From sequence record OR544954: a stretch of 64,000 nucleotides of DNA; one strand, 5' to 3'. Below are positions 2,451 through 11,517 of the stretch, piece by piece. A program made the position numbers and the translations under genes. Within the stretch, counting starts at the first letter, position 1, and every line of letters begins with the position of its first letter. This DNA comes from Escherichia phage vB_EcoM_EP32a. The notes under the pieces were generated by a model. The model did not search any database. It had not been told where the DNA came from and saw only the letters and a list, made by a program, of their open reading frames with translations.

Positions 2451-2636
2451 ATGATGCCTATTCCTGATACACACGAAAAAAGTTGGGAATATATCGGTGA
2501 CGGAATGATGGAAGAAGTTGTTCGTCCTAATGCTTCAAACTCTTCAAGTTATAATCATTCTTACGTATCATCCTGGTCTGGAGATTCTGGTTCAAGTTAT
2601 TCTGATTGTGATTCAAGCTCAGGGAGCTGCGAATGA
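2451..2636 (+). CDS. hypothetical Ser/Cys-rich small protein (61 aa)
   Basis: ATG at 2451 with SD GGCGAAGG; starts right after the preceding stop. Confidence 0.4.
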   Translation: MMPIPDTHEKSWEYIGDGMMEEVVRPNASNSSSYNHSYVSSWSGDSGSSYSDCDSSSGSCE

Positions 2637-2812
2637 ACAAGATAGTTAAATGGTTTAAAAGCTGGGACGACGGTGTCGGTCCAGAAGATTGGCTGGATGT
2701 TCTTGAAGAGAATATGGCTAAAGAATTCCAGAAACATGAAGAAAAGCTCGTCGAAGATGAAGGCGAACGTATTGTAAAACTTTATATGGGTGAACCATCG
2801 AGGAAATTATAA
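2633..2812 (+). CDS. hypothetical small protein (59 aa)
   Basis: ATGA overlap with preceding gene and TAATG overlap with next; below ORF-track size cutoff. Confidence 0.35.
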   Translation: MNKIVKWFKSWDDGVGPEDWLDVLEENMAKEFQKHEEKLVEDEGERIVKLYMGEPSRKL

Positions 2813-3276
2813 TGGATGCTATGTTATTTAAAATGTATTTGCTTGAAGCCAAGTCGTTTAAACATATGCCAGTGGAAGATAAGACTCCACTAGAAATAGC
2901 TATTCTCATTAACAAAAGTCTAAATAATCCGCAATATATCGTAGAAGAATTCTGCAAATTGCAGATTCCTAAAGGTTACAAAATTCGTGTAGAGCGAGTT
3001 GGAGCTATTACTCGTTCTAAAAATTCTCCGTTTAGTCTTGAAGAAGGCATAAAGGACTTAGGTTATGAATCTACGGAAAATGCCGTTTATGTGAATCCTG
3101 AAAAGCGTTTAGACTTGTTTGAAAAGCGAGACCATAAGTATTTTGCCAAAAAATACTTTATTACATCATTAGCAGATTTAATCCATTTGCAACGAGCTAT
3201 TTGGAAATTTTTTAAGACAAAAGGTGTAGCGACAGAAACATTCTCTGAACAGCCTAGTTTTTATCTCGGTGAATAA
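2812..3276 (+). CDS. hypothetical protein (154 aa), position of T4 mrh
   Basis: Uninterrupted ORF translationally coupled to neighbours; assignment by synteny only. Confidence 0.5.
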   Translation: MDAMLFKMYLLEAKSFKHMPVEDKTPLEIAILINKSLNNPQYIVEEFCKLQIPKGYKIRVERVGAITRSKNSPFSLEEGIKDLGYESTENAVYVNPEKRLDLFEKRDHKYFAKKYFITSLADLIHLQRAIWKFFKTKGVATETFSEQPSFYLGE

Positions 3277-3457
3277 TATGGACTTGATGAGTATGTTTGA
3301 CGAGCCTGAAGTTGAGGCTCCTAAAGTGCATCGTAGTGAACTTGTTGATGAACTAGATAGTATTATACAACGACACGGCTTTAGTTTACCTGTTGAAGCC
3401 CTGAAAGACCTTGCCTCTTATTATGACGACCCTCCACCATGGAGTCCTTGGAAATGA
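3269..3457 (+). CDS. hypothetical acidic small protein (62 aa)
   Basis: ORF overlapping upstream gene by 8 nt. Confidence 0.4.
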   Translation: MNNMDLMSMFDEPEVEAPKVHRSELVDELDSIIQRHGFSLPVEALKDLASYYDDPPPWSPWK

Positions 3458-3618
3458 AAGAGAAATTGAAAGAGAAATTCTTACTAGAAATCAAGGAAAA
3501 AGACTTTGAGACATGGTATCGAATGGTGAAAGGGTTGACATTGCTTTTTAAAGCATCGTTATTCATGTTAGAACAACCTGGCCCTGATGGTCCTTTAGTA
3601 GGAAAGCTTAAAAAGTAG
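3454..3618 (+). CDS. hypothetical small protein (54 aa)
   Basis: ATGA overlap with preceding ORF; lysine-rich N-terminus. Confidence 0.3.
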   Translation: MKEKLKEKFLLEIKEKDFETWYRMVKGLTLLFKASLFMLEQPGPDGPLVGKLKK

Positions 3619-3646
3619 TTTACATTCCCTCCTCTCGTGTTATGAT
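3618..3646 (+). promoter_or_regulatory. T4-type early promoter (GTTTAC-N17-TATGAT)
   Basis: GTTTAC and TATGAT with 17-nt spacer, 28 nt upstream of the first mod-like gene. Confidence 0.55.
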
Positions 3647-3673
3647 AGGCTTATCTTTAAATGGAGGTCTATC

Positions 3674-4255
3674 ATGACATGTCAATCTGAACTTCAAGAA
3701 CGTGAATACCTAACAAATCTGATTGATAGCAAATTCACCCGCCAAGAACAAAACATTCTCTGGGCTTGCACCGATTCTAAGGAAGACCCGGATTTCCACT
3801 ATGAATTAGACCATCTTGTTCGTAAGCATATGACTTCTACAGTACCAGTAGAACTCTACCGCGGTGTAACTCCAGAAGAAGTAGAACGTCTTTCACTTCT
3901 TTCTGTTGGATGCCATTGGTCTCCTGGACGAGTAACATCGTTCACAACTGATTTCAGTACAGCTCGTCAATTCTCCGGGAGATGGGAATATCAGACGTAC
4001 ACTATTCTTAGTCTCAGGAATGCTCCATTCATTTTTGATTACTACCAAAACATGGTTAACATTGTACTTGCCGGAAAGAACCCTAAGCATGTTATGGAAG
4101 AAAAGCGTGTTGACGTCCTAGATATGATTGAATCTGAACAAGAGTACATGGTCTCAGGTATCTCTAGATTTGAGATTGTGGAAATTGAAGACTTAGAATA
4201 TGACCCTTTATCTCGATTATACAAAATCATTCATTTGAAAATGTTGAATTTTTAG
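3674..4255 (+). CDS. ADP-ribosyltransferase, ModA/ModB family
   Basis: R-S-ExE triad: LYRG, SFTTD, ESEQE; size and synteny (between soc and dda) match T4 modB/modA. Confidence 0.7.
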   Translation: MTCQSELQEREYLTNLIDSKFTRQEQNILWACTDSKEDPDFHYELDHLVRKHMTSTVPVELYRGVTPEEVERLSLLSVGCHWSPGRVTSFTTDFSTARQFSGRWEYQTYTILSLRNAPFIFDYYQNMVNIVLAGKNPKHVMEEKRVDVLDMIESEQEYMVSGISRFEIVEIEDLEYDPLSRLYKIIHLKMLNF

Positions 4256-7454: not shown

Positions 7455-8132
7455 ATGAGCACTGATGTTATTATAGATTTTGAAACATTCGGCAATACAT
7501 CAAAAGCGGCTGTTATTGATCTTGCGGTTATTGCATATAATTCTGACCCTGAAGTCGTTGAATCATTTGAAGAACTTGTTCAACGAGGTAAGCGAATTAA
7601 ATTTAATTTAGCTTCTCAGAAAGGGAAGCGAGTTTTCGCTAAATCCACTATGAAATGGTGGAAAGAACAATCGGCTGAAGCACGTAAAAACTTGGCCCCG
7701 TCTGAAGACGATGTCACTACGCTTGAAGGCATTAAAATCTTTTTAGATTATTGCCGAGCTAATAAAGTTGACCAATGGAAATCACAGATGTGGTGCCGTG
7801 GTATGAGCTTTGACTTCCCGATCTTGGTCGATTTGATTCGTGACCTCTATCGTGATGAAGGTGTTCTTGAACCAGAGATTGATACTGATAAATTAGAACC
7901 GGTTAAATTCTGGGCTCAACGCGATATTCGTACGGCAATCGAAGCTTACTCGTTGACACGAGGATTAAGTATGTGTCCATTACCAATGGGTACACTAAAA
8001 GGATTCGTTGCCCATGATAGTGTTCATGATTGTGCTAAAGATATTTTGATGTTAAAATATGCTCAGCGTTATGCGCTTGGCCTTGAAGATGTCCCTGAGA
8101 ATCCTGACCCGTTAAGTGTAAAACAGCGATAA
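7455..8132 (+). CDS. dexA: exonuclease A (DexA)
   Basis: 225 aa; N-terminal IIDFETFG DEDD-type exonuclease motif; synteny after dda. Confidence 0.85.
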   Translation: MSTDVIIDFETFGNTSKAAVIDLAVIAYNSDPEVVESFEELVQRGKRIKFNLASQKGKRVFAKSTMKWWKEQSAEARKNLAPSEDDVTTLEGIKIFLDYCRANKVDQWKSQMWCRGMSFDFPILVDLIRDLYRDEGVLEPEIDTDKLEPVKFWAQRDIRTAIEAYSLTRGLSMCPLPMGTLKGFVAHDSVHDCAKDILMLKYAQRYALGLEDVPENPDPLSVKQR

Positions 8133-8137
8133 AACCA

Positions 8138-8167
8138 GTTTACAACCAAGGATGGTTGTAGTATAAT
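8138..8167 (+). promoter_or_regulatory. T4-type early promoter (GTTTAC-N18-TATAAT)
   Basis: Consensus -35 and perfect -10 upstream of ORF 8199. Confidence 0.6.
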
Positions 8168-8198: not shown

Positions 8199-8693
8199 AT
8201 GAATATCAATACTACGGCTACTTACATCCTGAAAGACGAAAAACAAATCAACTGGTATGGTGCTTCAGTGCGAGCTTATGAAAAGTTTTGTGAAATTTTA
8301 AGTGCCACTCAAGGTAATAGTTTCACTATTGTTAACTTCATCAAACAAGCTGAAGGCCCTTGGTTATTCTTAGAAATTAAAAATTCACACGGTACAATTT
8401 CTACTACCGCCCTTCCAAGCACTGACTTTGAACTGTTGATTGAAGAAGTAGCACCTGTTAAAGACATCTGTATTGATATGGATATCGCTTGTATGTACGG
8501 TACTCTGATTAAGCCTATTGAGCCTACTGATTTGTTGTGTAAAGCTGTTTCAATTCGACGCCCATTCGCAGGTCCAGTAAATGGATGGGTAACTGACCAA
8601 TGGATTGAAGACGGTGTTGAACTTCTGAACGTTGTTCATGCAGGTGATTTTAGTGTAGTTCCACGTAGTGCTGTGGTTAATATCCTTAATTAA
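8199..8693 (+). CDS. hypothetical protein, paralog family member A (164 aa)
   Basis: C-terminal GWVTDQWIEDGVELLNVVHAGDFSVVP shared with the next two ORFs. Confidence 0.6.
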   Translation: MNINTTATYILKDEKQINWYGASVRAYEKFCEILSATQGNSFTIVNFIKQAEGPWLFLEIKNSHGTISTTALPSTDFELLIEEVAPVKDICIDMDIACMYGTLIKPIEPTDLLCKAVSIRRPFAGPVNGWVTDQWIEDGVELLNVVHAGDFSVVPRSAVVNILN

Positions 8694-8695
8694 TG

Positions 8696-8725
8696 TTGTA
8701 CATCCAAGGAAGGATGGAGTATAAT
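8696..8725 (+). promoter_or_regulatory. T4-type early promoter (TTGTAC-N18-TATAAT)
   Basis: -35/-10 pair immediately upstream of paralog B. Confidence 0.55.
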
Positions 8726-8755
8726 GAATTCAACTTAAACAAAGAGAGAGAAATT

Positions 8756-9220
8756 ATGATTACTATTGGTGAAATTAAGCGTGTATCGTCTGCATCTCGT
8801 TCTAAAGCTGCAGGAAAGCTGGTTGAAGTAGTAGGACTTCGTACTAATGGCATGGGCCGTATTAAAGAAGTTAAAGTTCGAATCATTCCTAGTTCTGGAA
8901 AAACTGAAACTCAGTTCGCCTATGTAAGTCCTAAATTCTTGGAAACTCGTGTAAGTGCCCACTTTGCTTCAAGCGATATCGTTGAGCCTACTATACAGTT
9001 CAAATGGGCCTTGTGTAAAGGTGTTGAATTCCAGACTGATAAAGAATTTGACTTCATCGATGAATACGGTTATCCAAGCAAAACTGATACTATGTGTGGC
9101 TTCATTAGTGACCAATGGGTTGAAGATGGTGAAAAGTTATACAATATCGTATTCTTAGGTGACTTCCGAGTTGTTAAAGAATCTGAAATCACTCGCTATG
9201 TGTCTCCTCGTAAAGCTTAA
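8756..9220 (+). CDS. hypothetical protein, paralog family member B (154 aa)
   Basis: ATG at 8756 with SD AGAGAGAGA; shares SRSKAAGKLVEV and GFISDQWVEDG motifs with neighbours. Confidence 0.6.
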   Translation: MITIGEIKRVSSASRSKAAGKLVEVVGLRTNGMGRIKEVKVRIIPSSGKTETQFAYVSPKFLETRVSAHFASSDIVEPTIQFKWALCKGVEFQTDKEFDFIDEYGYPSKTDTMCGFISDQWVEDGEKLYNIVFLGDFRVVKESEITRYVSPRKA

Positions 9221-9229
9221 GGAATTATT

Positions 9230-9649
9230 ATGAATATTGTAAATCTCTCTACAGGTGATTACGTATATGTATCTGTTGCTTCTCGCTCTAAAGTTGCCGG
9301 GAAGTTGGTTGAAGTTCTTTCTGTGAGTGATCCGGTTTTTGGTCGTAACCAAGTTAAAGTTCGTGATGCTAATGGTAATATTGGCTACGTCTCAAGTCAA
9401 TTCATTGAACCAGAAGAAAAAGCGTTCAAATGGAAACTGTGCAGGTCAGTTTTAGTTGTAAAAGACCATGAATTTACTATTGCTGCCGCAACTGATGGGT
9501 CTCCATGGACAACGAATCAAGTCGCTGGTTTTATTTCAGACCAATGGGTTGAAGATGGTGTTAAGCTTTATAACATCGTTTTCGCCGGACAGTTCATGGT
9601 AGTTCCTGAATTCCAAATCAAAGGATATAGCCAAGCATCTTTCGCATAA
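9230..9649 (+). CDS. hypothetical protein, paralog family member C (139 aa)
   Basis: Shares SRSKVAGKLVEV and GFISDQWVEDGVKLYNIVF with the two preceding ORFs. Confidence 0.6.
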   Translation: MNIVNLSTGDYVYVSVASRSKVAGKLVEVLSVSDPVFGRNQVKVRDANGNIGYVSSQFIEPEEKAFKWKLCRSVLVVKDHEFTIAAATDGSPWTTNQVAGFISDQWVEDGVKLYNIVFAGQFMVVPEFQIKGYSQASFA

Positions 9650-9653
9650 AGTT

Positions 9654-9682
9654 ATTTACTTCTCCTCTGGTTTTGATATTAT
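9654..9682 (+). promoter_or_regulatory. early-type promoter (ATTTAC-N17-TATTAT) inside an inverted repeat
   Basis: -10 lies in the loop of the 9661-9672 / 9692-9703 inverted repeat. Confidence 0.45.
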
Positions 9683-9708: not shown

Positions 9709-10233
9709 ATGTTAGTTTACCGCGTAGAACGTAGTTTTTGTACTCAACGTGAATCATTACCAGGAATTGCTATCGAAGACGGTAAAGCCGTCAGAATTTG
9801 GGAAACCTCTTGGAATAAAGAACCTCGTTCGCCATACGGTTGGTCGGGCACCGACAACTCTGAAGAAACATGGGAGTTTCTTGATAAGCATGGAATACTC
9901 TCAGGTAACTTCTACCATCACGGCGACAACTATAACGTCCCTAATCGTCCTACAGTAAATGAAGACAAACTCCTTGAACAAAATATCTTAAGATACCATA
10001 GAATTGAGCACACATTTGAATTGAGTGAAGATTGGGCTCAAGGGTTCTATTTTGGATTTGAAAGTGTTGACGCGGTTTATGCATGGTTTGATGACCAGGT
10101 GGATGTTGAACTTTTGAAAGCTAAAGGATACTACATCGCGGTCTATGAAGCACCTGATTTCATCCTCGGAAGTTGTCAATTAATGTTCAGACGTTCATTG
10201 GCAGAACAAGTTGATTTTATTTTGCTAAAATGA
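9709..10233 (+). CDS. hypothetical protein (174 aa)
   Basis: Uninterrupted ORF with SD in the hairpin arm. Confidence 0.55.
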   Translation: MLVYRVERSFCTQRESLPGIAIEDGKAVRIWETSWNKEPRSPYGWSGTDNSEETWEFLDKHGILSGNFYHHGDNYNVPNRPTVNEDKLLEQNILRYHRIEHTFELSEDWAQGFYFGFESVDAVYAWFDDQVDVELLKAKGYYIAVYEAPDFILGSCQLMFRRSLAEQVDFILLK

Positions 10234-11112: not shown

Positions 11113-11517
11113 ATGGCTTTTAATACGGCTTTTAAAGGTTTTAAAGGTTTTGAAGTTGGTAAGAAATATCGTATTATCAAAGGACAGGAAGATAATTTCT
11201 TGAGAATTCTTAATACAACTGGTAAACGTCTTAATACTAATCTGCATACTACTTTATTGTCCAAAGATTTTATTGTGGAAGAGATGATTGGTTATGGTGT
11301 TTCGCATAGTATGCAAGGTGATATTCTAATTTATGGTGCAGAATTTAAATTCTTTGAAGAAGTTCCGGAACCAGATACAGCTGTCGATTTCAAAAAAGGC
11401 TCTATAGAATTTGTTGATGGTTCTGTGATCGTATCAGGCGATGTGGTCATTACAGTTAAAAGTGAACAAGGGCGTTTAGCTGCAATTGATGCACTTCAGA
11501 AAATTAAATTTAAATAA
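11113..11517 (+). CDS. hypothetical protein (134 aa)
   Basis: ORF followed directly by a hairpin terminator. Confidence 0.55.
   Translation: MAFNTAFKGFKGFEVGKKYRIIKGQEDNFLRILNTTGKRLNTNLHTTLLSKDFIVEEMIGYGVSHSMQGDILIYGAEFKFFEEVPEPDTAVDFKKGSIEFVDGSVIVSGDVVITVKSEQGRLAAIDALQKIKFK

Follow-up and report, generated by a model that had tools for sequence, protein, structure and literature searches.

The motB.1-motB-second motB cluster of the RB69-like phage vB_EcoM_EP32a: a common C-terminal domain, differing N-terminal domains and variation by recombination

Three consecutive small genes found directly downstream of dexA in Escherichia phage vB_EcoM_EP32a (sequence record OR544954) are best read as the Mosigvirus motB.1-motB-second motB cluster, encoding three early small proteins that have a C-terminal beta domain in common and differ in their N-terminal nucleic-acid-binding modules, a reading to which we assign a probability of about 80%. 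The 64,000-nucleotide stretch analysed (hereafter the window) belongs to a Mosigvirus, an RB69-like relative of T4, and the cluster region is 98% identical to that of phage APCEc01 and matches 453 phage records. The arrangement is one already described for RB69-like phages and is real but ordinary: RB69 has been reported to carry two motB genes and one motB.1 (Patterson-West et al. 2021, PMC7827196), so the paralogy is already in print for this phage group. Little is new, then, in meeting once more a gene family that is annotated and in print, the phage being 98% identical to isolates already sequenced. Of modest value for T4 biologists is the finding that the variability of this family is driven by recombination under purifying selection; charge and architecture also suggest the directly testable idea that the KOW-like N-domain may be the DNA-binding part of these proteins and the C-domain an interaction module.

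The original prediction had described three open reading frames of 164, 154 and 139 amino acids in a row, and these are indeed present, all on the plus strand: ORF1 (164 aa, motB.1) at 8199-8693, ORF2 (154 aa, motB) at 8756-9220 and ORF3 (139 aa, a second, diverged MotB paralog) at 9230-9649. The dexA gene occupies 7455-8132, with ORF1 next downstream. The neighbour on the other side, ORF4 (9709-10233, plus strand, 174 aa), lies outside the MotB family: it is a homologue of T4 motB.2 (34% identity, with a match to phrog_1106) and gives no match to the MotB model PF17613. A tblastn search found no further copies of the C-terminal motif elsewhere in the 64-kb window. The order dda-dexA-cluster-motB.2-cef-goF-39.2-39 is the same in the window, RB69 and APCEc01, and the cluster genes of RB69 (RB69p013 motB.1, RB69p011 motB, RB69p010 MotB-like) and APCEc01 (APCEc01_017 to _019) correspond in identity, order and flanks (dexA upstream, motB.2 and cef downstream), with proteins 87-99% identical to those of the window. 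The cluster occupies the position typical of MotB-family genes, namely the dispensable early region from dexA to cef of a Tevenvirinae genome. T4 differs in having a single motB, where the window has two, and in placing motB.2 before motB.1 rather than after the cluster. Comparison with T4 dexA.1 and dexA.2, which had been recommended, proved misdirected: in T4 both are found on the other, upstream side of dexA, and neither is related to the cluster or to ORF4.

Matches to T4-early/sigma-70-like promoters are found on the plus strand before ORF1 (8139-8167, TTTACA-17-TATAAT, 11/12 consensus), with a palindrome at 8140-8161 within the spacer, and before ORF2 (8697-8725, TGTACA-17-TATAAT, 10/12 consensus), and ORF4 is preceded by a promoter-like site at 9655-9682. 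The second gene, which had been credited with an early promoter of its own, does therefore have a candidate, although that of ORF1 is the better match. The consensus scan returned no promoter-like site for ORF3 itself, which starts 9 nt past the ORF2 stop codon behind a ribosome-binding site only. Across the region there are 19 promoter-like sites, compared with 13.2 +/- 4.2 in shuffled sequences, all of them consensus matches only. By analogy, ORF1-ORF3 are predicted to be expressed early. A longer open frame for ORF2 begins at 8693, but the annotation of APCEc01 starts the gene at the ATG at 8756, a choice supported by the location of the promoter-like site at 8697-8725 within the longer frame.

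All three proteins score above the gathering cut-off (25 bits) of PF17613 (MotB, 'modifier of transcription'), with 137.9 bits for ORF2 (E=3.7e-40), 80.9 bits for ORF3 and 34.4 bits for ORF1, the match in ORF1 being confined to residues 92-159 (the C-terminal 68 residues). The same ranking is seen with the MotB-like family phrog_1671 (E=1.5e-65 for ORF2, 1.8e-50 for ORF3 and 3e-15 for ORF1). T4 MotB (NP_049626, 162 aa) aligns end to end with ORF2, with 48% identity over 155 aa (E=5e-45), and is 38% identical to ORF3; it resembles these two proteins in its KOW-like N-domain with SRSKAAGKLVEV, its C-domain with DQWVEDGVKLYN, the basic character of the N-domain and the early-gene position between dexA and cef. 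These alignments make ORF2 orthologous to T4 MotB. For this member of the cluster, an outcome that the original prediction had named as telling against it, a clear ortholog among characterised genes, thus does occur. ORF1 instead has a full-length match to the MotB.1 family phrog_2333 (E=1.9e-81 over residues 1-164) and shows 46% identity to T4 MotB.1 in its intact, 143-aa form, across the whole length of the latter. Judged by sequence, ORF1 is MotB.1, in which a different, putatively SH3/LSm-like N-domain is joined to the shared C-domain.

How far the three proteins resemble one another can be seen from pairwise BLASTP. Homology between ORF2 and ORF3 extends over their full length, at 43% identity across 148 aa (E=3e-31), whereas ORF1 aligns by its C-terminus only, over its last 29 aa with ORF3 (62% identity, E=2e-11) and over its last 36 aa with ORF2 (44% identity, E=2e-10). 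The C-terminal block G[WF][VI][TS]DQW[VI]EDG...N[VI]V..G.F predicted for all three is upheld, being common to ORF1, ORF2 and ORF3 far beyond chance; at the nucleotide level it is visible as a 68-nt direct repeat on the plus strand, encoding DQW(I/V)EDG..L.N.V..G.F.VV, with three copies (8595-8662, 9110-9177 and 9539-9606) that are 60-72% identical. The N-terminal segment SRSK(A/V)AGKLVEV, also predicted for all three, is present in two: a 48-nt plus-strand repeat encoding the KOW-like VS.ASRSK(A/V)AGKLVEV occurs in ORF2 (8782-8829) and ORF3 (9268-9315) with 81% identity and is absent from ORF1, the N-terminal half of which is unrelated. It follows that 'triplicated' is too strong a term, because the N-domain of ORF1 differs: the genes are true paralogs, but two of them are so over their full length and ORF1 by its C-terminal domain alone.

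With just some 30-60 residues of ORF1 in common with ORF2 and ORF3, it might be supposed that convergence, chance or the translation of repeats accounts for the shared blocks, and that homology does not. We consider this extremely improbable. The pairwise alignments that had been proposed as a check give E-values of 2e-10 to 3e-31, a single Pfam model scores above threshold on all three proteins, and ORF1 can be aligned to T4 MotB itself over 73 residues with 34% identity. Furthermore, in the family-wide alignment the core DQW.EDG..L.N.V..G...V keeps its D, W, E, G, L, N, V, G and V residues unchanged, whether the protein is of MotB type, of MotB.1 type or a hybrid.

The build expected of MotB, a KOW-like N-domain with SRSK.AGK followed by a C-terminal beta domain with DQW.EDG..L.N, is recovered in ORF2 and ORF3. 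In an AF2 model of ORF2 (30-sequence alignment, mean pLDDT 84.6), residues 1-62 form a beta N-domain and residues ~80-150 a five-stranded C-terminal beta domain (pLDDT 90-97), with a disordered linker (66-78) between them. ORF3 has the same two domains with the inter-domain linker deleted; relative to T4 MotB, a linker of ~25 residues has gone together with most of the positive charge. ORF1 consists of a putative SH3/LSm-like N-domain (~1-85), whose model has the SH3-like domains of FeoA and IdeR as structural neighbours, a poorly modelled linker with DMDIACMYGTLIKP and a MotB.1-type C-domain (~108-164). A 21-residue segment of this linker (DMDIACMYGTLIKP...) is missing from T4 MotB.1. Confidence in the ORF1 C-domain model is low (pLDDT 35-60), probably because the alignment is nearly invariant there: the MotB.1-type sequence PTDLLCKAV..RRPF...GWVTDQWIEDGVELLNVVHAG..SVVPRSAV, present in ORF1, is invariant in 26 aligned homologues. 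The domains differ markedly in charge. The N-domain of ORF2 (pI 10.7, net +8) is strongly basic, as is that of T4 MotB (pI 9.9, net +6), that of ORF3 is close to neutral (pI 8.1, net +1), the C-domains are acidic to neutral (pI 4.7-7.9, net -4 to +1) and ORF1 as a whole is acidic (pI 4.65, net -8).

The family is a narrow one. Sequence searches of the PDB gave no match for ORF2 alone (E up to 1) or for a profile of the MotB alignment (E up to 10), and Foldseek against BFVD returned MotB-family phage proteins and weak two-domain look-alikes only. Resemblance to the KOW domains of NusG and Spt5 and to Tudor-type SH3-like barrels is one of fold only; MotB proteins differ in having no NGN domain and no sign of binding to RNA polymerase or the ribosome, and their sequences could not be linked to any solved structure. 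A profile built from the three C-domains and searched against 1.84 billion representative proteins found 26 clusters only, all of them proteins of 43-251 aa with the domain always at the C-terminus. Proteins of ~180 aa and 248 aa that differ from ORF1 in their N-terminal parts have C-domains 74-88% identical to its own, and four proteins (P0108, P0118, P0171 and P0175) have a KOW-type N-domain fused to a MotB.1-type C-domain. Such fusions of the C-domain to varied N-domains correspond to Categories 2-4 of Patterson-West et al. 2021 (PMC7827196), the MotB.1 subgroup being 'Category 2'. In a neighbour-joining tree of the 40-residue core, which is weak overall and too short for deeper inference, MotB-type and MotB.1-type C-domains are separate and ORF3 forms a clade with a bootstrap of 97.

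Is ORF3 a gene in its own right? Located 9 nt behind motB and, as read from the sequence, in the same transcription unit, it could in principle duplicate motB redundantly, as a spare or for dosage, or be decaying, with no distinct function, and some phages (Kelasse, for example) have merged both copies into one hybrid gene. We think this unlikely. ORF3 is just 43% identical to ORF2, carries a different charge and has no linker; it is intact in 10/10 genomes examined, its dN/dS is 0.17 in both domains, and in the C-domain tree, albeit on an alignment of 40 aa, it groups separately. About 207 phage records contain an ORF3-type gene with at least 80% identity, and the next matches are below 60%. 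ORF3 is an old, stably maintained paralog.

The original prediction saw in the locus a tandemly triplicated host-takeover or anti-defence gene, situated in a hyperplastic region and diverging under diversifying selection. Part of this is borne out. Gene content from dexA to cef varies among the 11 genomes compared, and copy number likewise differs from phage to phage; membership of the host-takeover class is supported by homology to T4 MotB, an early, host-directed protein (PMC6070864, PMC7827196). The proteins, too, are variable: in otherwise nearly identical Mosigvirus genomes, ORF2 ranges from 72 to 99% identity and ORF3 from 85 to 99%, compared with 96-100% for dda, dexA and cef. The pattern of substitution, however, is not that of an arms race. 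Pooled Nei-Gojobori (NG86) dN/dS among seven Mosigvirus genomes, the window included (orthologs were also taken from three Tequatrovirus genomes), is 0.12 for ORF1, 0.24 for ORF2 and 0.17 for ORF3, indicating purifying selection, although these are pairwise, gene-wide values with which a few positively selected sites remain compatible. Among the neighbours the corresponding values are 0.025 for dda, 0.03 for dexA, 0.10 for motB.2 and 0.05 for cef. When calculated by domain, dN/dS peaks at 0.49 in the disordered linker of ORF2, never coming near 1, and is 0.05-0.17 in the shared block. A value of 0.75 for a 134-aa ORF at 11113-11517 was discarded as an extraction artefact due to an offset start and an indel.

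Synonymous divergence points the same way. Within Mosigvirus, dS is 0.18 for ORF1, 0.38 for ORF2 and 0.29 for ORF3, whereas in dexA (0.07), motB.2 (0.09) and cef (0.14) it is 0.07-0.14, the cluster exceeding its flanking genes by 2-5 times; for dda the value is 0.12. That excess protein divergence is paired with excess dS indicates older or imported alleles rather than fast protein evolution. MotB.1-class C-domains, moreover, keep 74-88% identity even where the N-domains attached to them are unrelated, and ORF1 is a partial duplicate only. The gene-wide dN/dS values give no signature of positive selection, Pfam and PHROG return MotB-type families only, and the literature consulted on the family gave no link to anti-defence. 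Neither diversifying selection nor an anti-defence role is thus supported, and we regard an arms-race origin for the cluster as improbable.

Variation in the cluster is due instead to homologous recombination at the two conserved blocks and to exchange of cassettes between phages, as the combination of high dS, hybrid genes and cross-genus cassettes indicates. In the Tequatrovirus teqhad, a cassette of Mosigvirus type (protein identities of 96%, 84% and 91%) lies beside a dexA that is only 68% identical. The complete genome of Kelasse has one hybrid gene in which the N-terminus of ORF2 is joined to the body of ORF3, the junction falling exactly at the SRSK block. CrRp10 has a T4-type motB, an ORF3-type copy and a 30-aa remnant of the MotB.1 tail, and the Mosigvirus JM17 has no motB.1. 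Unequal crossing-over at the two blocks and the swapping of cassettes between genera are the processes at work. Three further candidates for recombination (P0028, P0029 and P0031) were set aside because they derive from short Logan contigs and could be assembly chimeras.

What the cluster proteins might do can be approached through T4 MotB. This protein has been reported to be toxic to E. coli, to bind DNA non-specifically whether the DNA is modified or not, to come down with H-NS and StpA on purification and to double the burst size (Patterson-West et al. 2018, PMC6070864). It also changes the H-NS footprint, with up-regulation of 75 host genes, and HHpred relates its N-domain to KOW and its C-domain to OB folds; the C-domain is described as common to MotB and MotB.1, possibly via duplication (Patterson-West et al. 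2021, PMC7827196). We infer a comparable activity for ORF2 by homology, although ORF2 is only 48% and ORF3 only 38% identical to T4 MotB. ORF2 would be made early, bind and coat DNA tightly without sequence specificity and remodel H-NS/StpA-DNA complexes, thereby relieving H-NS silencing of host genes and modestly raising burst size. Charge and conservation suggest that it touches DNA through its basic N-domain of KOW-like type (SRSKAAGK motif, pI ~10.7) and that the conserved, acidic-to-neutral C-domain serves for docking or oligomerisation. ORF3 may be a charge-reduced, independently maintained MotB variant, sub- or neo-functionalised, since loss of the linker and a near-neutral N-domain make altered or weaker DNA binding probable. 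In ORF1 the same class of C-domain is placed on an acidic, putatively SH3/LSm-like N-domain, and the protein is unlikely to coat DNA itself. For the N-domain of MotB.1, modelling has given an LSm/SH3-like barrel akin to GoF and Frd.2 (Kim et al. 2025, PMC12152347); our ORF1 N-domain model has the same structural neighbours as this 'LSm-like fold' group, and ORF1 is acidic. Knockdown of T4 motB leaves the phage transcriptome almost unaffected, which counts against the explanation favoured here.

T7 gp5.5 and T4 Arn are phage proteins that counter H-NS, and they do so by binding H-NS directly or by mimicking DNA; the outcome proposed for MotB, relief of H-NS-mediated silencing, is the same. We know of no sequence or fold relationship between MotB and either protein. 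By contrast with both, the DNA is what MotB binds, and the footprint of H-NS is altered (PMC7827196).

A more speculative extension starts from the extremely conserved C-domain, with its 26 clusters, invariably C-terminal location and at least four kinds of N-domain partner. It might be a common docking or oligomerisation module through which the three paralogs, presumably co-expressed, assemble together on a single host target such as H-NS/StpA-DNA filaments or compete for it, with the N-domains supplying binding to DNA (basic KOW) or to RNA or another ligand (acidic LSm-like). We regard this as unlikely; were it true, MotB.1 would be a modulator or antagonist of MotB and not an independent factor.

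A by-product of the comparison concerns the motB.1 reference sequences. In the T4 reference (NC_000866.4 / AF158101.6) motB.1 stops at 119 aa, there being one extra G (ATTGGAAG for ATTGAAG) inside the DQWIEDG codons, past which EDGVELLNVVHAGEYSVVPRSAVVAILN is encoded in the next frame. In thirteen further records of T4 or of T4-identical sequence, MotB.1 is intact at 143 aa and is recovered by tblastn as a single piece, and the gene is split in the two reference records only. The 119-aa form is without the last 28 residues of the C-domain; the extra G is very probably responsible for this loss from the conserved domain. The annotation matters in that it was used for gene synthesis: Kim et al. 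2025 (PMC12152347) had motB.1 synthesised from NC_000866.4 and reported a 13.8-kDa protein, and the form used was therefore the truncated one. In RB69, the reference motB.1 is split into 132 aa plus a 29-aa 'peptide', while the window has one intact 164-aa ORF. The RB69 '29-aa peptide' (RB69p012) represents the end of motB.1 read out of frame, two single Ts having been inserted relative to the window, and it is an artefact or lesion of the same kind as that in the T4 reference motB.1.

The motB cassette has been exchanged across genera. In the Tequatrovirus teqhad, motB.1, motB and the second, diverged motB copy all lie within 2451-3920 of the comparison locus (L006), and the encoded proteins are 96%, 84% and 91% identical, respectively, to those of the Mosigvirus window; dexA is 68% identical between the two. 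Within Mosigvirus itself, motB.1 is wholly missing from JM17 (site at L005 2961-3027).

Recombination at the conserved blocks, namely the 68-nt C-terminal block common to all three genes and the 48-nt SRSK block of motB and its second copy, has given rise to three products. Kelasse encodes a single hybrid gene (L003 3459-3911) in which the N-terminus of ORF2 (motB) is joined to the body of ORF3 (the second copy), with the SRSK block at the junction. In CrRp10, a 30-aa tail (L008 2827-2919) is the sole remnant of a MotB.1-type C-domain. The third product is P0185, a 43-aa protein in which a motB.2 N-terminus is fused to the MotB.1 tail.

The T4 reference motB.1 (L002, NC_000866.4, 3640-4151, minus strand; compare 8595-8693 of the window) has one extra G within the DQWIEDG codons, which cuts the protein short at 119 aa; the conserved tail that it lacks is encoded in the next frame. 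In thirteen further records, of T4 or identical to it, motB.1 is intact and codes for 143 aa; among the records compared, the gene is split only in AF158101.6 and NC_000866.4. The motB.1 gene used by Kim et al. (2025; PMC12152347) was synthesised from the reference sequence, and the form of MotB.1 studied was therefore the truncated one. In RB69, the reference motB.1 region (L010, NC_004928.1, 4377-4873, minus strand) carries two single-T insertions ~60 nt apart when compared with the window, where motB.1 is intact; the insertions reflect either errors in sequencing or a true lesion of the laboratory stock. The 29-aa RB69p012, a peptide placed in 'Category 3' by Patterson-West (2021; PMC7827196), is the C-terminal tail of motB.1, out of frame.

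The linker of ORF1 (MotB.1 of the window; residues 93-106, 8475-8516) contains the sequence D-M-D-I-A-C-M-Y-G-T-L-I-K-P, modelled with pLDDT <50. This motif recurs at the N-termini or in the linkers of many family members, namely the ~180-aa and 248-aa proteins and the hybrids that join KOW to a MotB.1 C-domain, and is absent from T4 MotB.1. It may act as a short linear interaction motif.

A 134-aa ORF at 11113-11517, which relative to APCEc01 has an in-frame deletion of 42 nt and a 5' extension of 21 nt, may encode a further small SH3/LSm-like protein of the same region: its LIYGAEFKFFEEVPEPD segment weakly matches (E=0.008) the N-domain end of a 180-aa MotB.1-class protein.

Both early-type promoter matches (8139-8167 and 8697-8725) share the spacer motif CCAAGGA(T/A)GG, and a palindrome with a 9-bp stem (8140-8161) lies between the -35 and -10 hexamers of the first. 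The same palindrome additionally scored as a terminator-like hairpin.
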